Source of the DNA: Bacilli bacterium
GTDB taxonomy: Bacteria > Bacillota_I > Bacilli_A > RF39 > UBA660
DNA: 64,000 bases
Direction: 5' to 3'
Assembly (NCBI GenBank): GCA_017460745.1
Contig: JAFUAL010000042.1
Span: forward strand, 14,983 to 78,982
Part shown: positions 33,107 to 55,711 of the stretch, piece after piece
Layout: the number at the start of each line of letters is the position of its first letter
Numbering within the stretch: the first letter of the stretch is position 1
Notes under the pieces: generated by a model
The model's database searches: none
Told to the model about the DNA's origin: nothing
Seen by the model: the letters and a program-made list of their open reading frames with translations, nothing else
Made by a program: the position numbers and the translations under genes

Positions 33107-33134
33107 AAAAGGAAAATCTTCGATTTCCTTTTTT
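33107..33134. terminator. Bidirectional terminator between AIPR and the convergent restriction gene
   Basis: AAGGAAAATC-ttc-GATTTCCTT hairpin (one bulge), flanked by an A-run and a T-run. Confidence 0.65.
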
Positions 33135-34410
33135 ATTTATATATAATATCATCAGGCCTTATGTTGCTTTTATAATTATTATATTGTTCATCCAGATTGT
33201 TTAAGTACTTTTCTAATTTATTTAAGTCCTTTGAACTATCTAGTATATATTTATTTGTTAGTTGAGCAATTTTGCTTCCATTAATCATAATTAGTGGATA
33301 TTGATCTTCCAGAATCTCTTCTTGTGTTTGTTGCGAAAAAGTGGAGTTTGTAACAAACACACCTACATAATTCCTTTTTAATTTTGCAATTGTTCTTGCT
33401 ATATCTTTACTATTTATGGTTTCATTTTGACATTTTGCTTGTCCTATTACTACCATTTTTATTCCTGCTAAATCTTGACCAATATCAATTCTTGTTATAA
33501 AATCTATTCCTTTGTCTCCAGAACCTTTAGTTATGTAGCCTTCTAAATATTTAGTATTATTTTCCATAAAGAAAAATTGGGTAATTTGTAAAGCAAATAG
33601 TTCAAATTGTAATTTTTTATTTTTATAATGTTCTTCAATAATTCCGATTATTTTATCTTCAAACGAACTACTATTTGCTTTTTGATCTTTTTCTTTAATT
33701 ATTCTTGATTTTAATACATGACGTCTGACTTTTTCAATATTATCATTGCCGTTTTTAACCCAATATTTCCATGATAAAGGTGCATTTTTATTTGCTTCTT
33801 GGATTGATAATCTATTATTACATCTATCAGATATCCATTCCCAATCTAATTGATTATTTTCATTTGATAAGTCTAAAATACAAAATTCAAATTCGAAATT
33901 TGTAAATTCATTATTATCGGCTTTTTGTGTTATTAGGCTAACTTTTTCAATTACTCCAAATCCATGAAATTGTAGATATCCTTTTTTTATTCTTTCAAAA
34001 AAAACTATTGGAACTGCTTTTTCTCTTTCTTTTATATCATTTGAGCTATGTTTTTTCCATTCGTCCATTAGGATTTTATTTCCACTTGCAGTTGATGGAT
34101 TAATACTATTACTTTTGCAATCACCATAATATATTACAATACCATTATCTGGATCATATCTATCTTTCCATGGCGTGTTTTCTGTTCCAGCTTTATGTGG
34201 CGAACTTGAAATAATTATAATTGGATCTCGATCACCATCAACGGCTTTAATATTTTTTGCTTTATGTATTCCTCGTTCAAATCTAAATGTTGAATCTAAA
34301 TTTTTTGATTTTGTATAATAAATAAAGTTTTTAGTATTATCGATAAATTCTTGAGCATTTGTGCTATAATCATTAGATAATCTAAATATATCGCCAATTC
34401 TTAATTTCAT
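33133..34410 (-). CDS. Putative modification-dependent (type IV) restriction endonuclease: SRA/YDG-like N-domain + Mrr-type PD-(D/E)XK C-domain
   Basis: C-terminus GDKGIDFITRI...MVVIGQAKCQ matches the Mrr_cat D...(Q/E)xK motif. N-terminus GIHKAKNIKAV...PIIIISSS...DRYDPDNGIVIYYGD...SGNKIL parallels the SRA pattern (GIH...SLVLSGGY.DD.D.G..F.YTG...N.AL). Confidence 0.65.
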   Translation of the reverse strand: MKLRIGDIFRLSNDYSTNAQEFIDNTKNFIYYTKSKNLDSTFRFERGIHKAKNIKAVDGDRDPIIIISSSPHKAGTENTPWKDRYDPDNGIVIYYGDCKSNSINPSTASGNKILMDEWKKHSSNDIKEREKAVPIVFFERIKKGYLQFHGFGVIEKVSLITQKADNNEFTNFEFEFCILDLSNENNQLDWEWISDRCNNRLSIQEANKNAPLSWKYWVKNGNDNIEKVRRHVLKSRIIKEKDQKANSSSFEDKIIGIIEEHYKNKKLQFELFALQITQFFFMENNTKYLEGYITKGSGDKGIDFITRIDIGQDLAGIKMVVIGQAKCQNETINSKDIARTIAKLKRNYVGVFVTNSTFSQQTQEEILEDQYPLIMINGSKIAQLTNKYILDSSKDLNKLEKYLNNLDEQYNNYKSNIRPDDIIYK

Positions 34411-34640
34411 AGTATCATACCTCTATAAATATTATACTATAAAACCAATCCATTTTTTGTATTTTTTCACTTTTACATTTCCTATTATATAAACTTTGAT
34501 AAACTATGATAAATTATTAATGTCCACAAAACCTTATTTTATAAGGAATCTAAATTTTCGTATAAGTAATAATTCGTGCGGGGGGTGGCCCCTCTGAAGA
34601 GAGCAAAATAATTTTTCAACAATTATTTTGTTATGCATAC

Positions 34641-34704
34641 AATAATATGGGTGAATTAATTATATATGAATAATGGATACAGAATAGTTGTTGATGCGGG
34701 ACAC
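34641..34704 (+). repeat. Direct repeat copy 1: non-functional duplicate of the amidase gene 5' end
   Basis: AATAATATGGGTGAATTAATTATATATGAATAATGGATACAGAATAGTTGTTGATGCGGGACA matches 37389-37451 with 1 indel and 2-3 substitutions. The indel creates a stop (MGELIIYE*). Confidence 0.9.
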
Positions 34705-34760
34705 CTAAATACGAAGTTCCCCAAATTAAAGATATAACAAATATTAAGTCTATAAATGTA

Positions 34761-34789
34761 AAGATACTTGGGAGAGTATCTTTTTTTTT
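34761..34789 (+). terminator. Hairpin + T9 run just inside the left repeat
   Basis: AAGATACT-tgggag-AGTATCTT followed by TTTTTTTTT. No intact gene lies upstream on this strand, so it is probably a relic. Confidence 0.55.
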
Positions 34790-34815
34790 GTATAATAATT
34801 TTGGAGTTGATTAGT

Positions 34816-35661
34816 ATGAAATTGAATTATCGATTAATAAAAATAAGTTGTATAGTAATGGTGATAACGTTGTGTATTACTTCTATATTAACTTTTGCCT
34901 GTACTCAAAATAGAGTTATTATTTATATTAGTAATATTCTTTTGAATATTTTTGCTGGTGCTGTTATTTTGTTTATAACATCACTTGTTGAATATTTTGC
35001 TAGTAGAAAAAAAGATTTGGAAACTCTTATGAAATTTATTCTTGATTACCGAAATAAATTTTCTAAAATTAAATATTTGGAGGAAGTTAAATTATTAAAT
35101 CATGATGAATACAAGAAAAAATTTAATAAGGACGATAGTAATGTAGAATTACTTTTGAAAGTAGGTAATGAGTGTGATGAATATAATAAAGGATTAATAA
35201 AAAACTTTGATAAGACTATAGATGCATATATAGATATTTCAAAAATAAATTTTAATGATTTTTGGGATATTTATGCAGATTTACGTTTTATATTTAATAA
35301 TAAAAAAAATAATTTAAAACTTTATAATGAAATTTTTAAATATATATATGATGAAGCAAATTTAATTAGAGAATTATCTTACCATTTAAACATCTACAAA
35401 ACATCTGATGTTAATCCTATTGTTATGTATGATAAAATAAGAAAATATCAAAATCATATTTTTTATGAAAAAGAATTAATGCCCGGAGAGAAATTGAATA
35501 AAAAGAATATGGAATTGATTAAAAGCGGAATTTCTTATCAAACAACATGGCGAAAAGACAAAAGTTCATTTTTTGTATACAATAAAATGACAAAATATTT
35601 AGATGAACAGTATGATAATGTTGGAAAGATAGCATATTTTAATAACGATTATAAAAATTAA
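34816..35661 (+). CDS. Hypothetical membrane protein (2 N-terminal TM helices + helical soluble domain)
   Basis: Start at ATG 34816 (RBS GGAG at 34803; the track TTG start at 34768 was rejected). TM helices IKISCIVMVITLCITSILTFA and IIYISNILLNIFAGAVILFITSLV. No motif recognised. Confidence 0.65.
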   Translation: MKLNYRLIKISCIVMVITLCITSILTFACTQNRVIIYISNILLNIFAGAVILFITSLVEYFASRKKDLETLMKFILDYRNKFSKIKYLEEVKLLNHDEYKKKFNKDDSNVELLLKVGNECDEYNKGLIKNFDKTIDAYIDISKINFNDFWDIYADLRFIFNNKKNNLKLYNEIFKYIYDEANLIRELSYHLNIYKTSDVNPIVMYDKIRKYQNHIFYEKELMPGEKLNKKNMELIKSGISYQTTWRKDKSSFFVYNKMTKYLDEQYDNVGKIAYFNNDYKN

Positions 35662-35709
35662 TTAAATAATTTTGTAAAAAAATATGGTGATATAATTTGA
35701 GGTGTAATA

Positions 35710-36744
35710 ATGAATTTAACTGAATTAAATACAATTTTGGTGGCATCAGAATTAAAGTCGCTTTACAGTATTACAAAAGGAATTATTAATTGTGAAAATA
35801 ATTCTATAGTAAGCTTAGGATTTTTCAATTATGTAATCTTATTATCAGTAGAGATATGTGATTATGCAAATGAAACATATGGTGATAAGTTAACTTATAA
35901 ATATAAAAGAAAAATAAAAGAATGTAGAGCTAGAATTAAAGAATATAATATTGAATCTAGTGAAATATTAGCATTAATTGAAAAGACAAATGTGGAATCA
36001 ATAGATTATTTTTATAAAGATTTATCTAAATTAGTTCAAATGATATTTGGCTCTTTGATAACTAATTTAGGAATCTATAAATATAACGATAAAATTATTT
36101 CTAATACTTTTTTAATATCAAAGGACTTAAAACCTATTATTTATAATGATAGAAAAATTGATAAAAAAAGAATAAAAGAAGTATCAACTTCGTTAGGAAT
36201 GTTATTAAATACTTTATATTTAATTTTTTATAAAGATGTTCAAGTTCAAGCAAATGTTAATATTAAGTATAATTTTGTTTTAGAAGATTACAATGTTAGA
36301 AAAAAAAATAATTTACTTAATCCAAAAATAAATAATAATGAAGCATTATTTTTTTTAGATATATTGTCAATTTTAAATTTCTGTAAAGAAATTATATATT
36401 ATTTTGAAATATGTGATGAATTGAAATATCGAATTTTTTATTTGGCATTTTATAGAACGTATCATAATACCATTAAACTCGTTGAAAAAGATGATAAATA
36501 TCTGAATATAAATAATATATTAAAAAAATACTATAACTTGGATAATAAAGTATTTAGAAATGCAATGTTTCATTATAATATAACAGATAAAATTAATAGT
36601 AATGAAATTAAATTTGATCAAATGTATTATGGAATAATTTTTAAGTATTTAAAAATGAGTGATATTGAATATAAAAAAAGTATAATAAATTATTTTACAG
36701 AGCTTTCCTCAGCTATATCGAATATAATTTTATTCAAAAAGTAA
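35710..36744 (+). CDS. Predicted HEPN-type (Rx4H) helical protein, Abi-like
   Basis: All-helical 344-aa protein with FRNAMFHYN near the C-terminus (R283-x4-H288, nt 36556-36573), the RNxxxH form of the HEPN RNase motif as in the Abi_2/AbiD-F families. RBS GAGGTG upstream. Confidence 0.55.
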   Translation: MNLTELNTILVASELKSLYSITKGIINCENNSIVSLGFFNYVILLSVEICDYANETYGDKLTYKYKRKIKECRARIKEYNIESSEILALIEKTNVESIDYFYKDLSKLVQMIFGSLITNLGIYKYNDKIISNTFLISKDLKPIIYNDRKIDKKRIKEVSTSLGMLLNTLYLIFYKDVQVQANVNIKYNFVLEDYNVRKKNNLLNPKINNNEALFFLDILSILNFCKEIIYYFEICDELKYRIFYLAFYRTYHNTIKLVEKDDKYLNINNILKKYYNLDNKVFRNAMFHYNITDKINSNEIKFDQMYYGIIFKYLKMSDIEYKKSIINYFTELSSAISNIILFKK

Positions 36745-36936
36745 ATAAAATTATAACTTTTTTACCAAAAATATAAATTATATTTTTGTAATAGCAAGCA
36801 CTGAATTTGTACACGCACAAAATTCGCTTGATGGGACTTGAATTTAAATAATAATCAAGTTACTACAGGGTCGCTTTAATTATAAATACGAAAAGTTGTT
36901 TCTTTGAATTTCTATTAGTAATATTTATATAAGTAA

Positions 36937-36999
36937 AAAAGACTATCATTTTTATTGAACCAATATTTCAATAAAGTTGATAGTCTTTTAATTTTTTTA
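36937..36999. terminator. Long compound hairpin (12 bp + 8 bp stems), bidirectional terminator
   Basis: AAAAGACTATCA (36937-36948) pairs with TGATAGTCTTTT (36978-36989). The inner stem is TTATTGAA (36952-36959) with TTCAATAA (36967-36974). T-runs are present on both strands. It overlaps the stop of the minus-strand ORF. Confidence 0.65.
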
Positions 37000-37309
37000 T
37001 TTGTTCATCTTTTAATATATGTTCTTCAATACTTGGATCATATTCTAGTTTTAAATATCCAAGTAATTCATTTATATTTTTAATTAATTTTTTTGATGTT
37101 TCATCTAATTTATTATTCTTTTTTAAATGTTTTTCTAAATCATCAACATAATCTTGTAAATCTATATCAAGATGTCTTCTTTTATCAACTTCATGTAATA
37201 CTATTTTGTTAGCATATTCATGATCTTGAACTTTTTTATAATATCTTTTATAATTTACAATTACATTATTATCACTATGTTCAACTAAATCTTCTGAGTA
37301 TCCAACCAT
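36968..37309 (-). CDS. Small acidic/basic helical ORF (113 aa), possibly a gene fragment
   Basis: ORF only; no convincing RBS upstream (…AAACTGGCTAAAATG). Its 5' end abuts the right direct repeat at 37389. Confidence 0.3.
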   Translation of the reverse strand: MVGYSEDLVEHSDNNVIVNYKRYYKKVQDHEYANKIVLHEVDKRRHLDIDLQDYVDDLEKHLKKNNKLDETSKKLIKNINELLGYLKLEYDPSIEEHILKDEQIKKLKDYQLY

Positions 37310-37388
37310 TTTAGCCAGTTTTTTTAAAATCTAAATTTAGATATTTTTTGAACGATTTTAAAGTAACTTTTATTAAACTAACTCATAA

Positions 37389-37451
37389 AATAATATGGGT
37401 GAATTAATTAATATGAATAATGGATATAGAATAGTTGTTGATGCTGGACAT
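37389..37451 (+). repeat. Direct repeat copy 2 (functional 5' end of the amidase gene)
   Basis: See copy 1 at 34641-34704. Homology starts at AATAATATGGG and ends at GGACA. Flanks are unrelated. Confidence 0.9.
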
Positions 37452-38807
37452 GGAGGAAGTGATCCTGGGGCAGTATCTGGAAATTTAAGAGAAAAGGATT
37501 TTACTTTAAAAGCTGCTAATTATATGTATAATAGATTTAGAGAATTAGGAGTTCCTGTTGCTATTACAAGAAATACGGATGAAACATTAAGCAGAACTGA
37601 AAGACTTAATACTATGAGAAATACATTTGGAAATGATTCTAAAGTAATAGTATTATCAAATCACATAAATGCAGGAGGAGGCGAGGGTGCAGAAGTAGTA
37701 TACCCACTTCGTACTTCTTCAACACTTCCGTCAATGATTTTAGAAGAAATTGGTAATCGTGGTCAAATAAAAAGAAAGTATTATCAAAGAGTACTTCCAG
37801 AAAATCCAAGTAAGGATTATTATTACATCATGCGTGAAACACCAAATACAACAGCTTTATTAATTGAATATGGGTTCATTGATAATCCAAATGACCAAAG
37901 AAAATTACAAAATAATTTACTTGAATATGTAGAAGGGGTAGTTGAAGCTGTATCAGATTATATTGGAATTAACTACACACCACCTGGCTCTTCTGTACCT
38001 GATACTGACGGACTTTATACGGTTAAAAGAGGAGATACACTTTATTCCATTGCAAGAGAATATAATATAACTGTCAATGAATTAAAAAGTTTAAATGGTT
38101 TAACCAGTAATAACTTAAGCATTGGTCAAACACTTAAAGTACCAAATTTAGAAATACCAGAAGAAATAGAACAAGATGAATACATTGTAAAACAAGGTGA
38201 TACATTATCATCAATTGCAAGAGAGTTTAATACAACTGTAAATGATTTAATAACTTATAATGATCTTCCTACAACAATACTAAGTGTTGGTCAAATTTTA
38301 AGAATTCCAGGAAATCCTTCAAGTGATTTAATTTATATAGTACAACCAGGTGATACTTTATATGCTATTGCTAATAACTATGGTGTAAGTGTCGATGCTA
38401 TAAAGGAGTTAAATAACTTAACAAATAATACTTTAAGTATAGGACAAAATTTGTATATACCAAAAGGAACAACTATAGAAGAAACAGATTATGTTGTTTA
38501 TCAAGTAGAACCAAGTGATACTTTATATAGTATTGCAAGACGTTATAATACAAGTGTTGATGCTATTAAAGACTATAATAATTTAACAAGTAATGTTTTA
38601 ACAATCGGACAGAATCTTCAAATACCTGTTCAAAAAGTACAAACAGAAAATATAACCTATGTAGTAAAAAGAGGCGATACATTATATAAAATAGCAAATG
38701 ACTATGGTGTAACTGTTTTAGATATCATGAATTTGAATAACATGGATTCTACATTACTAAGCATTGGAGAAACTATTTTAATACCAAATCAAAAAGGTGA
38801 TTTTTAA
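37395..38807 (+). CDS. N-acetylmuramoyl-L-alanine amidase (Amidase_3) with five C-terminal LysM repeats
   Basis: VVDAGHGGSDPGAV and LSNHINAGGGEGAEV. Five Y.V..GDTLY.IA LysM units. No signal peptide, so endolysin/CwlC-like. The start could also be ATG 37413. Confidence 0.9.
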   Translation: MGELINMNNGYRIVVDAGHGGSDPGAVSGNLREKDFTLKAANYMYNRFRELGVPVAITRNTDETLSRTERLNTMRNTFGNDSKVIVLSNHINAGGGEGAEVVYPLRTSSTLPSMILEEIGNRGQIKRKYYQRVLPENPSKDYYYIMRETPNTTALLIEYGFIDNPNDQRKLQNNLLEYVEGVVEAVSDYIGINYTPPGSSVPDTDGLYTVKRGDTLYSIAREYNITVNELKSLNGLTSNNLSIGQTLKVPNLEIPEEIEQDEYIVKQGDTLSSIAREFNTTVNDLITYNDLPTTILSVGQILRIPGNPSSDLIYIVQPGDTLYAIANNYGVSVDAIKELNNLTNNTLSIGQNLYIPKGTTIEETDYVVYQVEPSDTLYSIARRYNTSVDAIKDYNNLTSNVLTIGQNLQIPVQKVQTENITYVVKRGDTLYKIANDYGVTVLDIMNLNNMDSTLLSIGETILIPNQKGDF

Positions 38808-39410: not shown

Positions 39411-39677
39411 ATGGAAAAAAATATTGAAGAAATAACATTATTATTAATGTATTTAACATCTTGGGAAGAAGATGGATATGTAGCTGATGAGAATGATATG
39501 CCAAAAGAAGCAAAAATTAAAACTTGTTGGAAAGGATATTCATTTGATATTATTAATAAATTAACTGATGATAATTATCTTTATTTTAGTAAATGTAAAA
39601 ACAAATCTATTTCTTTAACTCCAAAAGGAGAAGAATTAGCTAAAAAATTAATCGATAAATATATAAAAAATAAATAG
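39411..39677 (+). CDS. Small DUF6429-like (winged-helix-like) protein
   Basis: ITLLLMYLTSWEE...CWKGYSFDIINKL...SISLTPKGEELAKKLIDKY matches my memory of the DUF6429 family pattern. Confidence 0.55.
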   Translation: MEKNIEEITLLLMYLTSWEEDGYVADENDMPKEAKIKTCWKGYSFDIINKLTDDNYLYFSKCKNKSISLTPKGEELAKKLIDKYIKNK

Positions 39678-39690
39678 GAGGTGACTCAAA

Positions 39691-40890
39691 ATGACTGCAC
39701 CAAAATTAGATTTTTTATTAGAGATATTGGATAATAGAAATAATAATCCTGAAAGTTATGATACTAAGGTAAAAGAAAAAATAAATGAGTTGTATGATTT
39801 GTTAGATAAAATAAAGCCATTATCTGATGATGAATATAAAGTTTTATATTTTAGTGTAGAAAAGGGAAATATTGAAGAATATGGTAATTATGAAGAGTTA
39901 AAAGTAGATGGTGAAGTTGATAGCTACGAAGAATTTAAAACTAGATTTAATGAAGACTACGCAGATGAAATAATGTGGTATAAAATGACTTCTACTAAGT
40001 ATAAAAATTATCGTATGATATCAATTAATTCCAAAACTATAATATATGCTGATATGAATAATGAAAATACAAATTTTGAAGATTATCAATTGCAAGAATT
40101 ATTAGATTTTCTTATAATCAAAGTGAAAGATTGTATTCAAAAACTTGAAGACGAAACTTACAATGATTATATATCAAATAATTATTCTTATAAAAATAGA
40201 TTCGGCGTAATAAAAAGAAATGTGTATTGGAATATATATCCAGATACTAAGAAAAAACTATTAAATGAAATATCACAAGAAGAAATGAACTATTTCATTG
40301 AAAATGCAAGCGATAAAACTAATAATAGAATAAAAAATATGACATCTAGAAAGTATTTTGAATGTGTCGGATTAGTATATGAAAATATAGGTTATGAAAT
40401 AAGTAATTTAACAGATAAAGAACTATATTTAAAATATGCTGATGGTAGAGATGAAGGCTTAAGTAAAATTGATGAGAATAGTAGTCAAGAATTTGATAAA
40501 TGGTATAATGATTATAGCAAGTTTGGAGGACATCCTTGGGAAATTATAAGAGGTCATTCGTTTACTAGAGTTAATTTACAAGTTCACAATGATGATAATG
40601 GATATTATTTATCGCTTGATGGTAATATAATCTTAAGAAAAATTGAAATAGCTAAAATATTTATTGCACTAAATAAAAATAATATACCAGTACAAATATA
40701 TAATGTAAATATAATAAAGAATGCATTTAAGGGTATTGATTATATTGGCATTGTTCCTAATGATATTATGCCAATTGAATGTGGTGGTTATTTTAAAAAA
40801 TACAAACCAACTGAATTTATACATATGGAAGATAATAAAATATTTAAGTACATTGAGTGGGAATTATTAGAAAATATAGAATTAAAATAG
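39691..40890 (+). CDS. Hypothetical protein (399 aa)
   Basis: RBS GGAGGTG upstream, 13-nt gap after the previous gene. No motif recognised. Confidence 0.6.
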   Translation: MTAPKLDFLLEILDNRNNNPESYDTKVKEKINELYDLLDKIKPLSDDEYKVLYFSVEKGNIEEYGNYEELKVDGEVDSYEEFKTRFNEDYADEIMWYKMTSTKYKNYRMISINSKTIIYADMNNENTNFEDYQLQELLDFLIIKVKDCIQKLEDETYNDYISNNYSYKNRFGVIKRNVYWNIYPDTKKKLLNEISQEEMNYFIENASDKTNNRIKNMTSRKYFECVGLVYENIGYEISNLTDKELYLKYADGRDEGLSKIDENSSQEFDKWYNDYSKFGGHPWEIIRGHSFTRVNLQVHNDDNGYYLSLDGNIILRKIEIAKIFIALNKNNIPVQIYNVNIIKNAFKGIDYIGIVPNDIMPIECGGYFKKYKPTEFIHMEDNKIFKYIEWELLENIELK

Positions 40891-40901
40891 AGGAGAAAAA
40901 T

Positions 40902-42341
40902 ATGAAGTATGAAAAGTATTTAATAAAAAAGGGCAAATTAGATTTGTTATCATCTTTAAAATCTTTAGATAAAAATTTACTTAATAAAACATTAAAAGAA
41001 TCTGGAATGAGTAGCCTTGAAGAATTAAAGAATGCAATTATCGAAGAATTTGAAATGAGTTTAGATATGTCAAAAGATGATCAATTTACAAGAATGTATT
41101 TTGAAAGATTACTTAATCATGAAAATTCAGAATGGATGTCAGCATATCAACAAGATATTGAGAATTTTTTAGTTTTTGTGTATGAAAATGGAGATTATTA
41201 TTCTTATTATATTCCAATTGAGATAAAAGAAATAATTAATAGATTACTAGGTAGCATGACTCCAGAAGAAAAATTTAATTTAGAAAATGCTGCTAATACA
41301 CCAATAGTAAAAGATTTAAAAGGACTATTGGATACATTAAGTGTTAGTGACTTGAAACATATCGGTGGATTATTACATGTTAATAGACTAAGTAACAAAC
41401 CTAAAAAAGAACTAGTTAAAATTATTTATAGTGCTCTTACAGATAAGGATAAATTGATAGATGTAATTGAAAGATTTATAGATAAAGAATTTGATTTATT
41501 AAAAGATTTGATGATTAACAAAGGTACTATTCAAAATAATAACATCAATATGGAAACATATCATTTCTTATATATGGTCGGTATAGTTTTCCTATTTAGA
41601 AGAGATAATAAATTTTACGTTTCTATGACTGATGATGTTTACAATACTATGAAAAAAGTAAATTTAAATAGTGTTCAAAAAATAGTAGATGAAAACACAA
41701 AGGTATATAATCTTGTTAGAGCAATGGTTGAATTATATGGTGTATTTTCATATAGTTATTTAGATTATTATTATAGTTTATATTATGGTAACGGTGAAGA
41801 ATTAGATACGCCAAATAATGCATTATTATTTTGTGAGAGAGCAGATAACATAGATATAATTCATACAGAACATAATATGTATTTTATTAATAGAATACTT
41901 GGACAAAAGGAATTTGAACCGTTATTAGATGATATTATCTCAAGACAAGAAAGTATTAAAAGAAAACCAATTAAATTAGAAAAATTACTTAAATACTCAA
42001 ATTATGATTATTACGAAGAAACAGAATCTAAAAATAAATTCAAAAAATATTTAAAAAGAAAAAACATTCCATCTGATACTATTGAAATAATTATAAAAAT
42101 AATTTCTGATATGTATAGACTTGGAAATAATTATATTAGTGCATCAATTGAAATGCTTCAAGATTATGGAGTAGAAGTAACGGAAAATAATATGCAAGAA
42201 ATAATAAAATATTTAATGGATATATATAATAATTCAAGAATTTGGTCTAATAATGGATGGACACCTATTGAAATGAGAAAAAATTATGAAGATATTTTTT
42301 TAAACGAAAATAGTGATAATGTAGATAGTTGTGAGTCGTAA
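40902..42341 (+). CDS. Hypothetical protein (479 aa)
   Basis: Start at ATG 40902 (RBS AGAGGAGAA; the upstream track start at 40857 overlaps the previous gene and was rejected). No motif recognised. Confidence 0.6.
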   Translation: MKYEKYLIKKGKLDLLSSLKSLDKNLLNKTLKESGMSSLEELKNAIIEEFEMSLDMSKDDQFTRMYFERLLNHENSEWMSAYQQDIENFLVFVYENGDYYSYYIPIEIKEIINRLLGSMTPEEKFNLENAANTPIVKDLKGLLDTLSVSDLKHIGGLLHVNRLSNKPKKELVKIIYSALTDKDKLIDVIERFIDKEFDLLKDLMINKGTIQNNNINMETYHFLYMVGIVFLFRRDNKFYVSMTDDVYNTMKKVNLNSVQKIVDENTKVYNLVRAMVELYGVFSYSYLDYYYSLYYGNGEELDTPNNALLFCERADNIDIIHTEHNMYFINRILGQKEFEPLLDDIISRQESIKRKPIKLEKLLKYSNYDYYEETESKNKFKKYLKRKNIPSDTIEIIIKIISDMYRLGNNYISASIEMLQDYGVEVTENNMQEIIKYLMDIYNNSRIWSNNGWTPIEMRKNYEDIFLNENSDNVDSCES

Positions 42342-42378
42342 AAGAAAATATATAGTATATAGTAGCAGGTGTTCTTAT

Positions 42379-42437
42379 GAATATCATGAAATTTAATACC
42401 AAATCAAGAAGGTGATTTTTAATAAGTCACTTTTTTT
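42379..42437 (+). repeat. Copy B: remnant of the amidase 3' end with an internal deletion + terminator
   Basis: GAATATCATGAAATTTAATACCAAATCAAGAAGGTGATTTTTAATAAGTCACTTTTTTT aligns to amidase nt ~38722-38731 joined to ~38777-38821. Confidence 0.85.
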
Positions 42438-42469
42438 ATGTTTAAATTAATAAATTCCTTATATGCATA

Positions 42470-42498
42470 TTGAAACCAAAATAAATGTTTGGTATAAT
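42470..42498 (+). promoter_or_regulatory. Sigma-A-type promoter of the 42.6-43.5 kb single-gene cassette
   Basis: TTGAAA (42470-42475), 17-nt spacer, TATAAT (42493-42498). Confidence 0.6.
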
Positions 42499-42565
42499 AC
42501 TCGTCAAACGAAGTAGCTTATTATTAGAAGTGAAAAACATTTATCAAATAAAGTGGAGAAGTAAT

Positions 42566-43504
42566 ATGGAAAATAGTAAAAATAATAAAAAAATAATTAT
42601 ATTTTTAATGATATTCATTGCATGTTTAATTATAATTAATTTTATTTGCGCATATCCTAAATATGAAATAACTGTAGAGATAATTGTTTGTTTAAGTTTA
42701 TTAACAATTTTGTCATTATCAGAGATGTTTGATGATCTCAGCATACCAAAGGTAATATCATTATCTAAAAATGTAAAAGAGATAAAGAAAGAAAATAATG
42801 ATTTAAAAGATACAAATATAAAATTATTGACACAAATTGCAAGCATTAAGAATTCTAATAGTCAAAATATTTTTCTGCCTAATTCTTTTAGTACTGTTAG
42901 TTCTTCGAATATAGATGATATAAATAAAAATGATGATAAAATTGAATCAGAAGAAAGTGATGTCCAAAGTAATTTAGAAAATAAGGATTATAAGGATTAT
43001 AGAACGCGTCATAAATATAGAAATAATTTAGACGTATTTATGTTAAAAAAAGTATTAGAGTTTAGTAACGATATTCCAAATTGTGATATTCGATATGATG
43101 TTAAGTTAATTAATGACAAAATTAGAGATGATAACATTATGAATAATGAGGTAAGGTTTGATGCATTAAAGTCAACTCCAAATGAAAACATTTTTTATGA
43201 AGTTAAAATTATACCATATCTATTTGATTTTTCTTATCAACTTCATTATATGTTAAGAACAATCGAATTATATAAAGATTATAGTAAAATTCCTTGCAAA
43301 TTGGTTTTAGTTTTACCTAAATTTGAAAAAGAATTAGAAAAAATATTATTTAATACAAGTAGAGATAGATTTTCTATGATTAAAGATAGGATATCAAATA
43401 GATTTGATCCCGCTATAAAAAATCATTTGTTAGAAATAGTGGAAGTAGATGTTTCTAAAGAAGAATTAGACAATTATATTAAAGAAAAAGAAGAATCAAA
43501 GTAA
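42566..43504 (+). CDS. Membrane-anchored coiled-coil protein with a C-terminal PD-(D/E)XK-like motif
   Basis: Start at ATG 42566 (RBS AAGTGGAGA), downstream of the predicted promoter. Two TM helices, then a coiled coil (KEIKKENNDLKDTNIKLLTQIASIKN). The C-terminal VRFDALKSTPNENIFYEVKI gives D-x12-E-x-K. Confidence 0.55.
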   Translation: MENSKNNKKIIIFLMIFIACLIIINFICAYPKYEITVEIIVCLSLLTILSLSEMFDDLSIPKVISLSKNVKEIKKENNDLKDTNIKLLTQIASIKNSNSQNIFLPNSFSTVSSSNIDDINKNDDKIESEESDVQSNLENKDYKDYRTRHKYRNNLDVFMLKKVLEFSNDIPNCDIRYDVKLINDKIRDDNIMNNEVRFDALKSTPNENIFYEVKIIPYLFDFSYQLHYMLRTIELYKDYSKIPCKLVLVLPKFEKELEKILFNTSRDRFSMIKDRISNRFDPAIKNHLLEIVEVDVSKEELDNYIKEKEESK

Positions 43505-54598: not shown

Positions 54599-55711
54599 GT
54601 GTTAAAAGCATTTAAGTATAGAATATATCCAAATAAGGAACAAATAGACCAAATAAATAAAACCTTTGGAAGTGTAAGATTTGTCTTTAATAAAATGTTA
54701 CAGTTTAAAAAAGACTTATATGATCAAATAGAATTATCATATTCTAAAATAGATTGTAATAACTGGTGTAATAAAGTATTAAAAGATGAATATCCTTGGT
54801 TAAAAGAAATAGATAAGTTTGCTCTTACTAATGCTATACATAATATGGATAATGCTTATCAAAAATTTTTTAAAGAACATTCAGGATTTCCTAAATATAA
54901 AAGTAAAAAAAATAATAATAACTCTTATACTACAAATTATACGAATAATAATATAAAAGTAGATTTTAATAATAATATAATTAAATTACCTAAACTAACT
55001 AATATGAAAATAAAATTACATAGAAAATTTGAAGGAATTATTAAAAGTGCAACTATAAGTAGAACACCAACTAATAAATATTATGTTTCAGTATTAGTAG
55101 AAACTAATATAAAACCATTACCAAAAGTAAATAGTAATGTAGGAATAGATTTAGGAATTAAAGACTTATGTATAACATCTGATGGAAAGAAATATGAAAA
55201 TCCTAAAATATTATCAAAATATAAAAAGAAATTAGTTAAATTACAAAGACAAATGTCTAAGAAAGTTATAGGAAGTAATAACTTTAATAAAATAAAAAAA
55301 CAAATAGCACTAAATCATGAGAAAATAAAAAATATAAGACTTAATCATTTACATAAAGTAAGTAATGAAATAATAAACGAAAACCAAGTAATTATTTCTG
55401 AAGACTTACAAATAAAGAATATGGTTAAGAATCATAAATTAGCATCAAGTATTACAGATGCATCTTGGTATGAGCTAACAAGACAATTAGAGTATAAAGC
55501 CAACTGGTATGGAAGAACTTATGTAAAAATAGATAAGTTTTATCCTAGCAGTCAAATATGTTCGAGTTGTGGATATCAAAACAAGGATACAAAAAAATTA
55601 AGTATTAGAGAATGGAAATGTCCTAATTGTAATACTCATCATGATAGAGATATTAATGCTGCATGCAATATATTGAGAGGAGGAATAAAAAAACTACAGA
55701 TGGCAATATAA
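54599..55711 (+). CDS. tnpB: TnpB (IS605 OrfB) RNA-guided endonuclease
   Basis: [13 protein letters not shown]-terminus, RuvC motifs VGIDLGIKD and [10 protein letters not shown], Zn ribbon CSSCGY...[21 protein letters not shown] start with RBS AAGGTGG. Confidence 0.92.

Follow-up and report, generated by a model that had tools for sequence, protein, structure and literature searches.

Abortive-infection proteins of the AbiD, AbiD1 and AbiF type (Pfam Abi_2, PF07751) are single-protein HEPN toxins. They are mostly helical, they are encoded by solo genes in restriction-modification (R-M), defence and mobile-element settings, and their C-terminal third contains an R-N-x3-H motif with an aromatic residue directly behind it. 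The lactococcal members are about 340 to 366 amino acids long, and in C. difficile phages the abiF gene is found just upstream of an amidase/endolysin gene. In HEPN domains the motif is placed where core helix 3 ends and the loop to helix 4 begins, with the histidine exposed, and HEPN proteins are repeatedly encountered within R-M operons, as exemplified by PrrC (PMC3710099), the anticodon nuclease of the EcoprrI/PrrI type Ic R-M operon. The lactococcal AbiC/AbiP group, made up of membrane-anchored Abi proteins that each come from a single gene, is of another kind; here the proteins have an extra-membrane (ecto) domain, as described in a review, and AbiC consists of two N-terminal hydrophobic helices and then a soluble domain. 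A third point of comparison is offered by the MOBV (Mob_Pre) integrative mobilizable elements with serine recombinases, which are flanked by direct repeats derived from the 5′ end of a target gene, bring a copy that keeps the target gene intact, and carry cargo adjoining the junction.

The locus considered here lies in a window of 64,000 nucleotides, the whole stretch of DNA that was analysed, from a Bacilli bacterium (contig JAFUAL010000042.1). It holds two genes, referred to as A and B, within a 2.7-kb segment bounded by direct repeats, and an earlier note had proposed them to be a two-gene system made of a membrane protein and a HEPN ribonuclease. The reading preferred here, which is given a little better than an even chance, is that A and B are independent single-gene cargo, side by side in one organism, within the remnant of an integrative mobilizable element at the 5′ end of an amidase gene, and that B is a toxic effector.

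The repeat-flanked segment and gene A

The direct repeats are located at 34636-34703 and 37384-37450 on the + strand and are identical in 64 of 68 alignment columns, the differences being three substitutions and one 1-nt indel. Gene A (34816-35661, + strand) encodes 281 amino acids from its ATG and represents a family of unknown function. Gene B (35710-36744, + strand) encodes a mostly helical, soluble protein of 344 amino acids from an unnamed family, with an invariant histidine within an R-N-x3-H-Y motif. Much of what the earlier note had said of the layout stands: the open reading frame coordinates give two co-oriented genes 48 nt apart, the segment is a repeat-flanked insert in defence-island surroundings, and neither gene belongs to a recognised family, as HMM scans of A and of B yielded no meaningful match in Pfam, PADLOC, NCBIfam or PHROGs. 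The GC content of the cassette is 20.1% versus 26% for the window.

Residues 3-31 and 33-63 of the A protein are hydrophobic and presumably form two membrane-spanning helices; a soluble, mostly helical domain comes next, with a small alpha/beta C-terminal part (model pLDDT 88). The two N-terminal transmembrane helices and helical domain that had been assigned to A are therefore retained, as presumed membrane helices, on the basis of the hydrophobic segments and the model. A longer version of A would start with the TTG at 34768, which falls inside the promoter-like site described below. No fold match was obtained with Foldseek for the A model against the PDB, and a profile search with the A alignment against PDB sequences found nothing; the Foldseek matches of the A and B models, for example to GPCRs and cytochrome bd, are noise. 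The closest relative of A shares 75% identity, and relatives were collected from 23 loci representing 8 kinds of place. Homologues lie upstream of Mob_Pre (L004-9, L080/81), and others are found near hsdR/KAP/GmrSD, a YobI NTPase or Fic.

Like AbiC, A has two N-terminal hydrophobic helices and then a soluble domain, and it behaves as a single autonomous gene, as in the AbiC/AbiP group. It differs in having neither a PADLOC or Pfam match, PADLOC being a collection that we take to include AbiC and AbiP models, nor a Foldseek match, so that only the general membrane-anchor architecture is common to both; moreover, topology suggests a cytoplasmic location for the soluble domain of A, in contrast to the ecto domain of AbiC/P. 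An AbiC/P-like role for A would be only an analogy. A might be a membrane-anchored, probably non-enzymatic protein that is expressed from the end of the element, and it may conceivably act in exclusion or abortive infection, like lactococcal AbiC and AbiP.

Gene B: motif, fold and neighbourhoods

The B motif FRNAMFHYN (36553-36579, + strand; residues 282-290, including R283, N284, H288 and Y289) is a candidate HEPN-type catalytic site. The R283-x4-H288 arrangement noticed earlier is confirmed by its codons (36556-36558 for R283 and 36571-36573 for H288) and by an alignment of the B family in which H288 is present in 85/85 sequences, R283 in 80/85 and N284 in 72/85. B contains just 9 arginines and 2 histidines in total, and the number of motifs expected from its composition is 0.05 for R-x4-H and 0.006 for RNxxxH; occurrence of the motif by chance is improbable. 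Across the 85 sequences, which share about 20% identity, R73 and H288 are invariant, and conservation is 90% or higher at K77, G121, D193, R283, Y289 and G308, with K77 and D193 exceeding 95%. The family comprises 156 representatives (clusters at 50% identity; E <= 0.001) of 330-390 amino acids, mostly helical and from Bacillota, and the closest relative of B shares 56% identity with it. A first GTDB pattern scan made from the initial alignment had found nothing. In L031-34 an upstream partner of B, 359-399 amino acids in length, was considered as an ATPase and rejected, there being no Pfam match; it looks like a remote paralogue with an NRxxRxNIHY motif of its own.

In the AlphaFold model of B (pLDDT 80, pTM 0.85) the motif ends a predicted helix (280-287), H288 is the first residue of the loop, and helices at 305-340 follow, a predicted position that would agree with that of the motif in HEPN domains (PMC3710099). 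The sequence R283-N284-x3-H288 agrees with the HEPN Rx4-6H motif in having a polar residue after the arginine, as is usual there, and in being conserved family-wide. With AbiD/AbiF the B protein has in common its mostly helical nature, the R-N-x3-H motif with an aromatic residue behind it in the C-terminal third, and presumably its size; the B family likewise consists of solo genes in R-M, defence and mobile-element settings, and B, as with abiF of the C. difficile phages, is near an amidase gene. The difference is that no homology is detectable between them (no PF07751 match). Aligned to Abi_2 with hhalign, B matched over the 11-residue motif only, at 1.3% probability, and hmmsearch in both directions with filters off gave E > 0.09; the Abi_2 kinship suggested in the earlier note is accordingly not confirmed. 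Nor is the HEPN fold, a four-helix up-down bundle: the 85 relatives, searched against Pfam and PADLOC, had scattered single matches and no HEPN or Abi model, and profile searches of the B alignments against PDB sequences found nothing. When the PDB and BFVD were searched by Foldseek with the whole B model, the best E value was 0.2, no TM-score exceeded 0.2 and no HEPN was among the matches, a weak negative. AbiF (8vz6) is within the PDB library, yet it was outside the top 50 Foldseek matches of B. HEPN families are very divergent and are frequently missed by sequence and Foldseek searches, and helical bundles are hard for Foldseek. The HEPN assignment of B would be founded only on the motif, its modelled position and the context. 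With regard to an AbiF-type antitoxin RNA, no Rfam match and no repeat array were found for B, which is preceded by only 48 nt, and the upstream regions of six B homologues do not align and contain no conserved non-coding region.

The genes next to B relatives provide that context. Close B homologues adjoin a type IIG R-M system and a PLD-helicase (L001/L002), EcoRI-type methylases and GmrSD (L003), Dcm, Abi_C and MutH (L013-16), DpnI and an MmeI-like enzyme (L017), or a MunI R-M system (L082). In five type I R-M operons the gene order is hsdS, B, hsdR; in three of these loci hsdR directly follows B (gaps of 12-28 nt), and otherwise two further genes lie in between; L048, for example, has the order hsdM, hsdS, B, hsdR. 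By a rough count, neighbours of B relatives also include type II and type IIG R-M genes, type I and type II methyltransferases, ATPases with matches to the models for GajA of Gabija and AriA of PARIS, integrases, serine recombinases and Mob_Pre. The location of B relatives inside type I operons beside hsdR/hsdS and the HEPN-style Arg/His motif recall PrrC, but B lacks an ABC-ATPase domain and any sequence similarity to PrrC, and the B gene of the window is not inside a type I operon. By this analogy, the R-M position and motif of the B family suggest a second-line toxin that would be freed when R-M is disabled, and the settings of B relatives fit a stand-alone HEPN-like toxin.

A competing explanation is that B is a defence-island effector and not a HEPN RNase, in which a new helical fold would bring together R73, K77, D193, R283 and H288 in one active site and the R-x4-H spacing would be coincidental or convergent. 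R73, K77 and D193 are far from the motif, equally conserved with it and outside the canonical HEPN signature, and the active site may accordingly be another one; R73 matches H288 in being invariant, the structure and profile searches link B to no HEPN, AbiF 8vz6 included, and the model forms one compact body as opposed to having a separable C-terminal domain. The explanation is tentative and on balance unlikely, because the polar residue after the arginine and the modelled helix-end placement are typical of HEPN, a divergent HEPN could readily escape such searches, and R-M embedding is a setting in which HEPN proteins recur. Under the preferred reading, B would be a stand-alone toxic effector of abortive-infection type. 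It would most likely be a metal-independent RNase, probably a homodimer, that uses R283/N284/H288 as a HEPN-style site, and by analogy with PrrC it may stay latent until phage infection or loss of neighbouring R-M activity. Should B prove to be an RNase, the many HEPN-type toxins that are coupled to R-M systems would gain a further lineage. A family of 156 clusters, unannotated in the libraries tried, with a strictly conserved Arg/His motif and repeated R-M embedding, is a testable defence candidate.

The amidase junction and a probable mobile-element remnant

Both direct repeats derive from the target, being duplicates of the amidase 5′ end. In the left repeat the RBS and first codons of the amidase gene recur in truncated and frameshifted form, and the right repeat comprises the RBS and 5′ end of the gene that is intact (37395-38807, + strand), which encodes an N-acetylmuramoyl-L-alanine amidase with Amidase_3 and five LysM domains. 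The repeats look like attL and attR junctions, respectively, with the amidase 5′ end as the apparent integration target. An exact-protein look-up found no empty amidase site, every contig with this amidase having the same arrangement.

Between the left repeat and A there is a hairpin, AAGATACT / AGTATCTT and then a T-run (34761-34789, + strand), which was read from the sequence and, standing behind the amidase fragment, resembles a terminator that insulates A. It is absent from the terminator-scan list, the stem having fewer than three G-C pairs, and its position is conserved in L080, L007 and L004. The promoter-like site for A (34768-34796, + strand) consists of TTGGGA, 17 nt and TATAAT, is followed by a GGAG RBS, and with 10/12 matches is the best + strand site in the scan; its -10 region and the RBS are conserved 5′ of A homologues. 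This promoter upstream of A is the only convincing one; the TATAAT that a sequence scan revealed just before B is only 3 nt from the B RBS and is judged too close to serve B.

In L080, L007 and L004 the amidase-like fragment, hairpin and promoter also precede A and a Mob_Pre relaxase gene comes after it, and in view of this shared block the 2.7-kb segment has the appearance of an integrative mobilizable element that has decayed and of which A is the first gene. The alignment of window positions 34619-35663 with L080 (77% identity) spans the left repeat and stops at the A stop codon; since DNA homology to the A-carrying elements ends at this point, B and orf113, a small reading frame described below, are a different piece of DNA. 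A large serine recombinase is encoded about 5 kb downstream in L007. These comparisons cover the left ends of the elements, the right ends of the related elements being beyond the DNA compared. The segment resembles the MOBV elements in its direct repeats from a target gene 5′ end, in the element-borne copy that keeps the target gene intact, in the cargo that adjoins the junction, and in its relatives, which encode a relaxase and a serine recombinase. It differs in that the window copy is only 2.7 kb and has neither enzyme: no recombinase or relaxase gene was found within 34704-37383 (open reading frames and Pfam scan), and tblastn with Mob_Pre against the window detected no relaxase remnant.

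Such a setting raises the alternative that one or both of A and B work for the mobile element itself, through entry or surface exclusion, as an addiction toxin with a stabilising effect on the element, or in accessory mobilization. A is the first gene at the att-like junction and is directly upstream of the Mob_Pre relaxase gene in three lineages. B relatives, as solo genes, also occur at integrase or relaxase ends of mobile elements, where they adjoin tyrosine and serine recombinases; B-family genes hold the equivalent place in L055 and L061 (aroA 5′ fragment, B-family gene, HTH_36, Mob_Pre) and precede HTH_36 and Mob_Pre in L056. Nevertheless, this alternative is considered unlikely. Members of both families are also found where mobilization genes are absent, inside R-M operons or beside other defence genes. 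A is furnished with a promoter of its own and, upstream, with a terminator-like hairpin, as for autonomous cargo, and plasmids (tblastn of A and of B against PLSDB) and viruses (IMG/VR scan for both families) yielded no member of either family.

The preferred reading of independent cargo can be extended to a broader proposal, which is regarded as quite improbable: the B family would be a new stand-alone class of defence toxins in Bacillota, with a centre formed by R283/H288 and R73/K77/D193, acting as a guard for adjacent R-M systems, and the att-side slot of MOBV elements would be dedicated to swappable defence cargo. If this were true, the B family would have a new RNase fold or else be a HEPN of great divergence, and would fire once the adjacent R-M system has been neutralised, the att-side slot would be filled by A in amidase-targeting and by B in aroA-targeting elements, and A would be a second new single-gene defence protein, in this case of the membrane. 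Small mobilizable elements in the 5′ ends of housekeeping genes, with variable and autonomously expressed cargo at the junction, offer a slot that can be mined for defence candidates.

Distribution of A and B

The loci with B relatives number 51 (about 52 kinds of place) and are made up of 5 places reached via close homologues (L001-3, L013-17, L082) and 46 genome loci. A search of every locus with the HMMs of the two families showed no A gene in the 51 loci with B relatives and no B gene in the 23 loci with A relatives; among all loci compared, the window organism is the only place with both. Each family is a solo gene with many different neighbours, and among these loci a conserved two-gene unit of A and B does not exist. 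The two-gene system of a membrane partner and a HEPN protein is thus not upheld, the neighbourhood comparison by which the earlier note proposed to check it having returned no co-occurrence in other genomes, and the effort of cloning both genes together is saved.

A single abortive-infection or toxin-type system, with the membrane protein as sensor or executor and the HEPN RNase as its partner, is very improbable and is largely refuted by the gene neighbourhoods: the co-orientation, the 48-nt spacing in which the terminator scan found no terminator-like site, the sole convincing promoter upstream of A and the similarly low GC (21% for A and 19% for B) speak for it, but co-occurrence is 0/51 and 0/23, the closest relatives are at different distances (75% versus 56% identity), and the DNA shared with A-carrying elements does not extend to B. 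As independent cargo, A and B may still have a local functional link in this organism, with possible co-transcription.

The remainder of the segment is occupied by orf113 (36968-37309, - strand), which encodes a 113-amino-acid hypothetical protein and, among the loci compared, was seen solely in contigs of the source organism. A 113-amino-acid reading frame downstream of the A homologue in L021 was considered as a relative and rejected, the two sequences being unrelated. Between B and orf113 there is an inverted repeat (36937-36989) with 23-nt arms that are 91% complementary and 7 nt apart, which is probably a bidirectional terminator.

Conservation of gene B and the HEPN question

Gene B (35710-36744, forward strand) encodes a protein of 344 aa and starts 48 nt after gene A; a scan detected no terminator-like site in the gap between the two. 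Both products are entered at NCBI as hypothetical proteins (IJ068_04610 for A and IJ068_04615 for B) of a "Bacilli bacterium" MAG. The ORFs and the RNxxxH motif described in an earlier note are confirmed in the sequence, where FRNAMFHYN occupies residues 282-290 of B (nt 36553-36579). Since B contains only two His and nine Arg, RNxxxH would be expected 0.006 times by chance.

B has 11 relatives in a collection of 5.8 billion proteins, and an exhaustive profile search (E <= 0.001) recovered a family of 156 cluster representatives at 50% identity, nearly all full-length matches being of 330-390 aa. Across 85 aligned representatives, which are about 20% identical to the window protein, R73 and H288 are invariant, K77, G121, D193, R283, Y289 and G308 are conserved at 90% or more, N284 is conserved at 85%, and residue 14 is acidic throughout; the family consensus of the motif is FRNCMxHY. 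The AlphaFold model of B is a single compact, mostly helical body (pLDDT 80, pTM 0.85) in which helix 280-287 terminates in the motif, H288 is first in the next loop, and long helices follow at 305-340. The Rx4-6H motif of the HEPN RNase superfamily has the same helix-end and loop placement (Anantharaman et al., PMC3710099).

Direct tests for membership of HEPN or of Abi_2 (the AbiD/AbiF family) were all negative. B has no match in Pfam, NCBIfam, PADLOC or PHROG, none of the 85 relatives matched a Pfam or PADLOC HEPN/Abi model, a B profile search of PDB sequences found no match, and Foldseek with the B model found none better than E = 0.2 in the PDB, where the AbiF structure 8vz6 is included, or in BFVD. 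Compared by hhalign with an alignment of Abi_2 that started from AbiF of phage phiC2, the family matched only through FRNcMxHY on lRNxCAHyG (11 columns, 1.3% probability), and HMMER with filters off returned nothing in either direction. Rfam, a tandem-repeat search and alignment of homologue upstream regions turned up nothing resembling an antitoxin RNA of the AbiF type in front of B. B can therefore not be shown to belong to Abi_2 or to any HEPN family described so far. The HEPN assignment proposed in the earlier note stays plausible from the motif, its helix-end position and the restriction-modification (R-M) context, yet unproven by the direct tests. A HEPN-like RNase toxin is our best mechanistic guess, held at slightly short of an even chance; the main alternative is that B uses a different catalytic architecture, one that would also involve the conserved R73, K77 and D193.

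Genomic contexts of the B family

The close relatives of B (48-56% identity) are solo genes without exception, and the neighbour differs each time. Among the fetched loci (L numbers), L001/L002 have a type IIG R-M gene with a PLD-helicase, L003 has a pair of EcoRI-type methylases with GmrSD, L013-16 have Dcm, Abi_C and a protein with a MutH domain, L017 has DpnI with an MmeI-like enzyme, and L082 has the MunI R-M system. A genome scan seeded with a sub-alignment of more distant relatives gave 46 more loci, from Clostridia, Lachnospiraceae, Erysipelotrichales, Listeria, Granulicatella, Macrococcus and Gemella. Counted over 148 neighbours within two genes of a B-family gene, the commonest families are subunits of type I R-M systems, ATPases that match the GajA and AriA models, AAA_21, Mob_Pre, and recombinases of the tyrosine and serine types. 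Five loci have the order hsdS, B-family gene, hsdR in type I R-M operons, with hsdR 12-28 nt from the B-family gene in three and two genes away in the others. Embedding in R-M operons is the described context of many HEPN clades, such as PrrC in the PrrI type Ic operon (PMC3710099), which the B family resembles in this respect, and the genomic context of B fits a HEPN protein.

In four genomes a protein of 359-399 aa with no Pfam match lies immediately 5′ of the B-family gene, which it overlaps or approaches to within 15 nt (L031:3923-5020, L032:5747-6946, L033:5780-6940, L034:5845-6924). It has its own invariant NRxxRxNIHY motif, and global hhalign with the B family is collinear and weak (25% probability, P = 1.5e-4), so that it is possibly a distant paralogue in tandem with the B-family gene. 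Tandem paralogues are reported for abiF genes (PMC12373285), and the candidate arrangement is alike.

The earlier note had also proposed that A and B form a two-gene system. HMMs of both families were run over every fetched locus, and both were found in one place only in the window; that the families co-occur nowhere else among these loci is the outcome the earlier note had set as refuting, and the two-gene interpretation is not supported. Moderately large and so far without annotation, the B family is a reasonable single-gene defence candidate.

Gene A and its relatives

Gene A (34816-35661, forward strand) encodes 281 aa from an ATG at 34816 preceded by a GGAG ribosome-binding site (RBS); the mechanical ORF begins at TTG 34768, inside the best promoter-like site on that strand (34768-34796; TTGGGA, 17 nt, TATAAT). 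A thus appears to carry its own promoter, and a hairpin in front of it would insulate it from upstream transcription. A soluble domain comes after two hydrophobic stretches (residues 3-31 and 33-63); AlphaFold models this domain with confidence (pLDDT 88) as helices with a small three-stranded C-terminal unit. Conserved positions in this domain are mostly aromatic or aliphatic, with R64, R209, Q212 and N256 the only invariant polar residues, a pattern that speaks more for a structural or binding role than for catalysis.

The same 5.8-billion-protein collection holds 33 relatives of A. DNA was fetched around A and B relatives on long contigs, and in the loci examined the A relatives are solo genes, found immediately 5′ of a Mob_Pre relaxase (L004-9, L080/81), with hsdR/KAP NTPase/response regulator on one side and GmrSD on the other (L010-12), behind a YobI-like NTPase (L019) or behind Fic (L022, L024). 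A is at the extreme end of a mobilizable element in three lineages and elsewhere adjoins R-M, KAP, GmrSD, Fic or YobI genes. Lactococcal AbiC/AbiP, a membrane-anchored group of single-gene Abi proteins (PMC13064643), offers the closest functional analogy and would suggest an Abi role, although A resembles this group neither in sequence (PADLOC) nor in fold (Foldseek); it is just as possible that A serves exclusion or the maintenance of the element. At L024:1657-2943, with Fic just upstream as in L022, the A-family protein runs on into a C-terminal GNAT acetyltransferase domain (428 aa), as either a true fusion or the result of a lost stop codon.

A probable mobile-element remnant and its surroundings

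The flanking direct repeat is real (34636-34703 and 37384-37450, 64 of 68 columns identical), and the surroundings are also as the earlier note had them, with an AspBHI_N+Mrr_cat enzyme at 33133-34410 on the reverse strand and housekeeping genes (DnaE, pyruvate kinase) starting at 44.7 kb. The right repeat comprises the RBS and first codons of an intact Amidase_3+LysM gene (37395-38807), and the left repeat is a truncated amidase copy whose reading frame is disrupted by a 1-nt indel. The annotated first ATG of the amidase is without an obvious RBS (37395-37415) and the second, at 37413 (MNNGYRIVV...), has GGGTGA 9 nt upstream; the latter may be the true start, in which case the repeat spans the RBS and about 13 codons.

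The left repeat is part of a block that stays conserved together with A. From the amidase fragment to the stop codon of A, window 34619-35663 is 77% identical to L080, the A homologue there being 70% identical. L080, L007 and L004 share the order amidase-like fragment, hairpin and T-run, TGgTATAAT promoter and RBS 5′ of A, all three have Mob_Pre after it, and L007 has a large serine recombinase about 5 kb beyond Mob_Pre. We read this as a putative family of integrative mobilizable elements targeting the amidase 5′ end, in which A comes first after the left junction. The window cassette has no relaxase or recombinase (Pfam; tblastn with Mob_Pre), contains B and orf113 (36968-37309, reverse strand) instead, and has 20% GC against 26% for the AT-rich window, and is thus, on this reading, a decayed or rearranged mobile-element remnant. 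No empty amidase site was found among contigs carrying this amidase, and the far ends of the related elements fall outside the fetched DNA, so that we infer that the repeats function as att sites.

B-family genes occupy the same junction-proximal place in aroA-linked elements as A does in the amidase-targeting ones. Truncated 5′ fragments of aroA (EPSP synthase) lie directly 5′ of B-family genes (L055:6584-6910, L061:6474-6830, L062:6483-6866), followed in L055 and L061 by HTH_36 and Mob_Pre after B, an order that L056 shares from B onwards. Cargo in the slot beside the attachment site thus looks interchangeable, and the window has two such genes in tandem.

Two independent assemblies of the amidase region (L078 and L079, contigs of 2.2-2.3 kb) stop within orf113 at a point 383 nt before the amidase, which may reflect strain variation or the repeat confusing the assembler. 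Just left of the left repeat, in very AT-rich intergenic surroundings, lies a GC-rich patch, cgtgcggggggtggcccctctgaagagagc (34566-34612), with no Rfam match. A 115-aa ORF at 38923-39270 matches only the first ~100 of the 286 positions of PADLOC PDC-S13 (1.4e-37), as well as phrog_15286, with weak Bro-N similarity, and looks like a truncated or N-terminal-domain-only gene. The stretch 39411-43504 lies between the amidase and the housekeeping block and encodes a DUF6429 protein (88 aa) followed by three proteins in one orientation (399, 494 and 339 aa) that lack a Pfam match; these genes could be further uncharacterised island cargo. An IS605-type OrfB/TnpB gene (HTH_OrfB_IS605, OrfB_IS605 and Cas12f1-like TNB domains) is present at 54599-55711.
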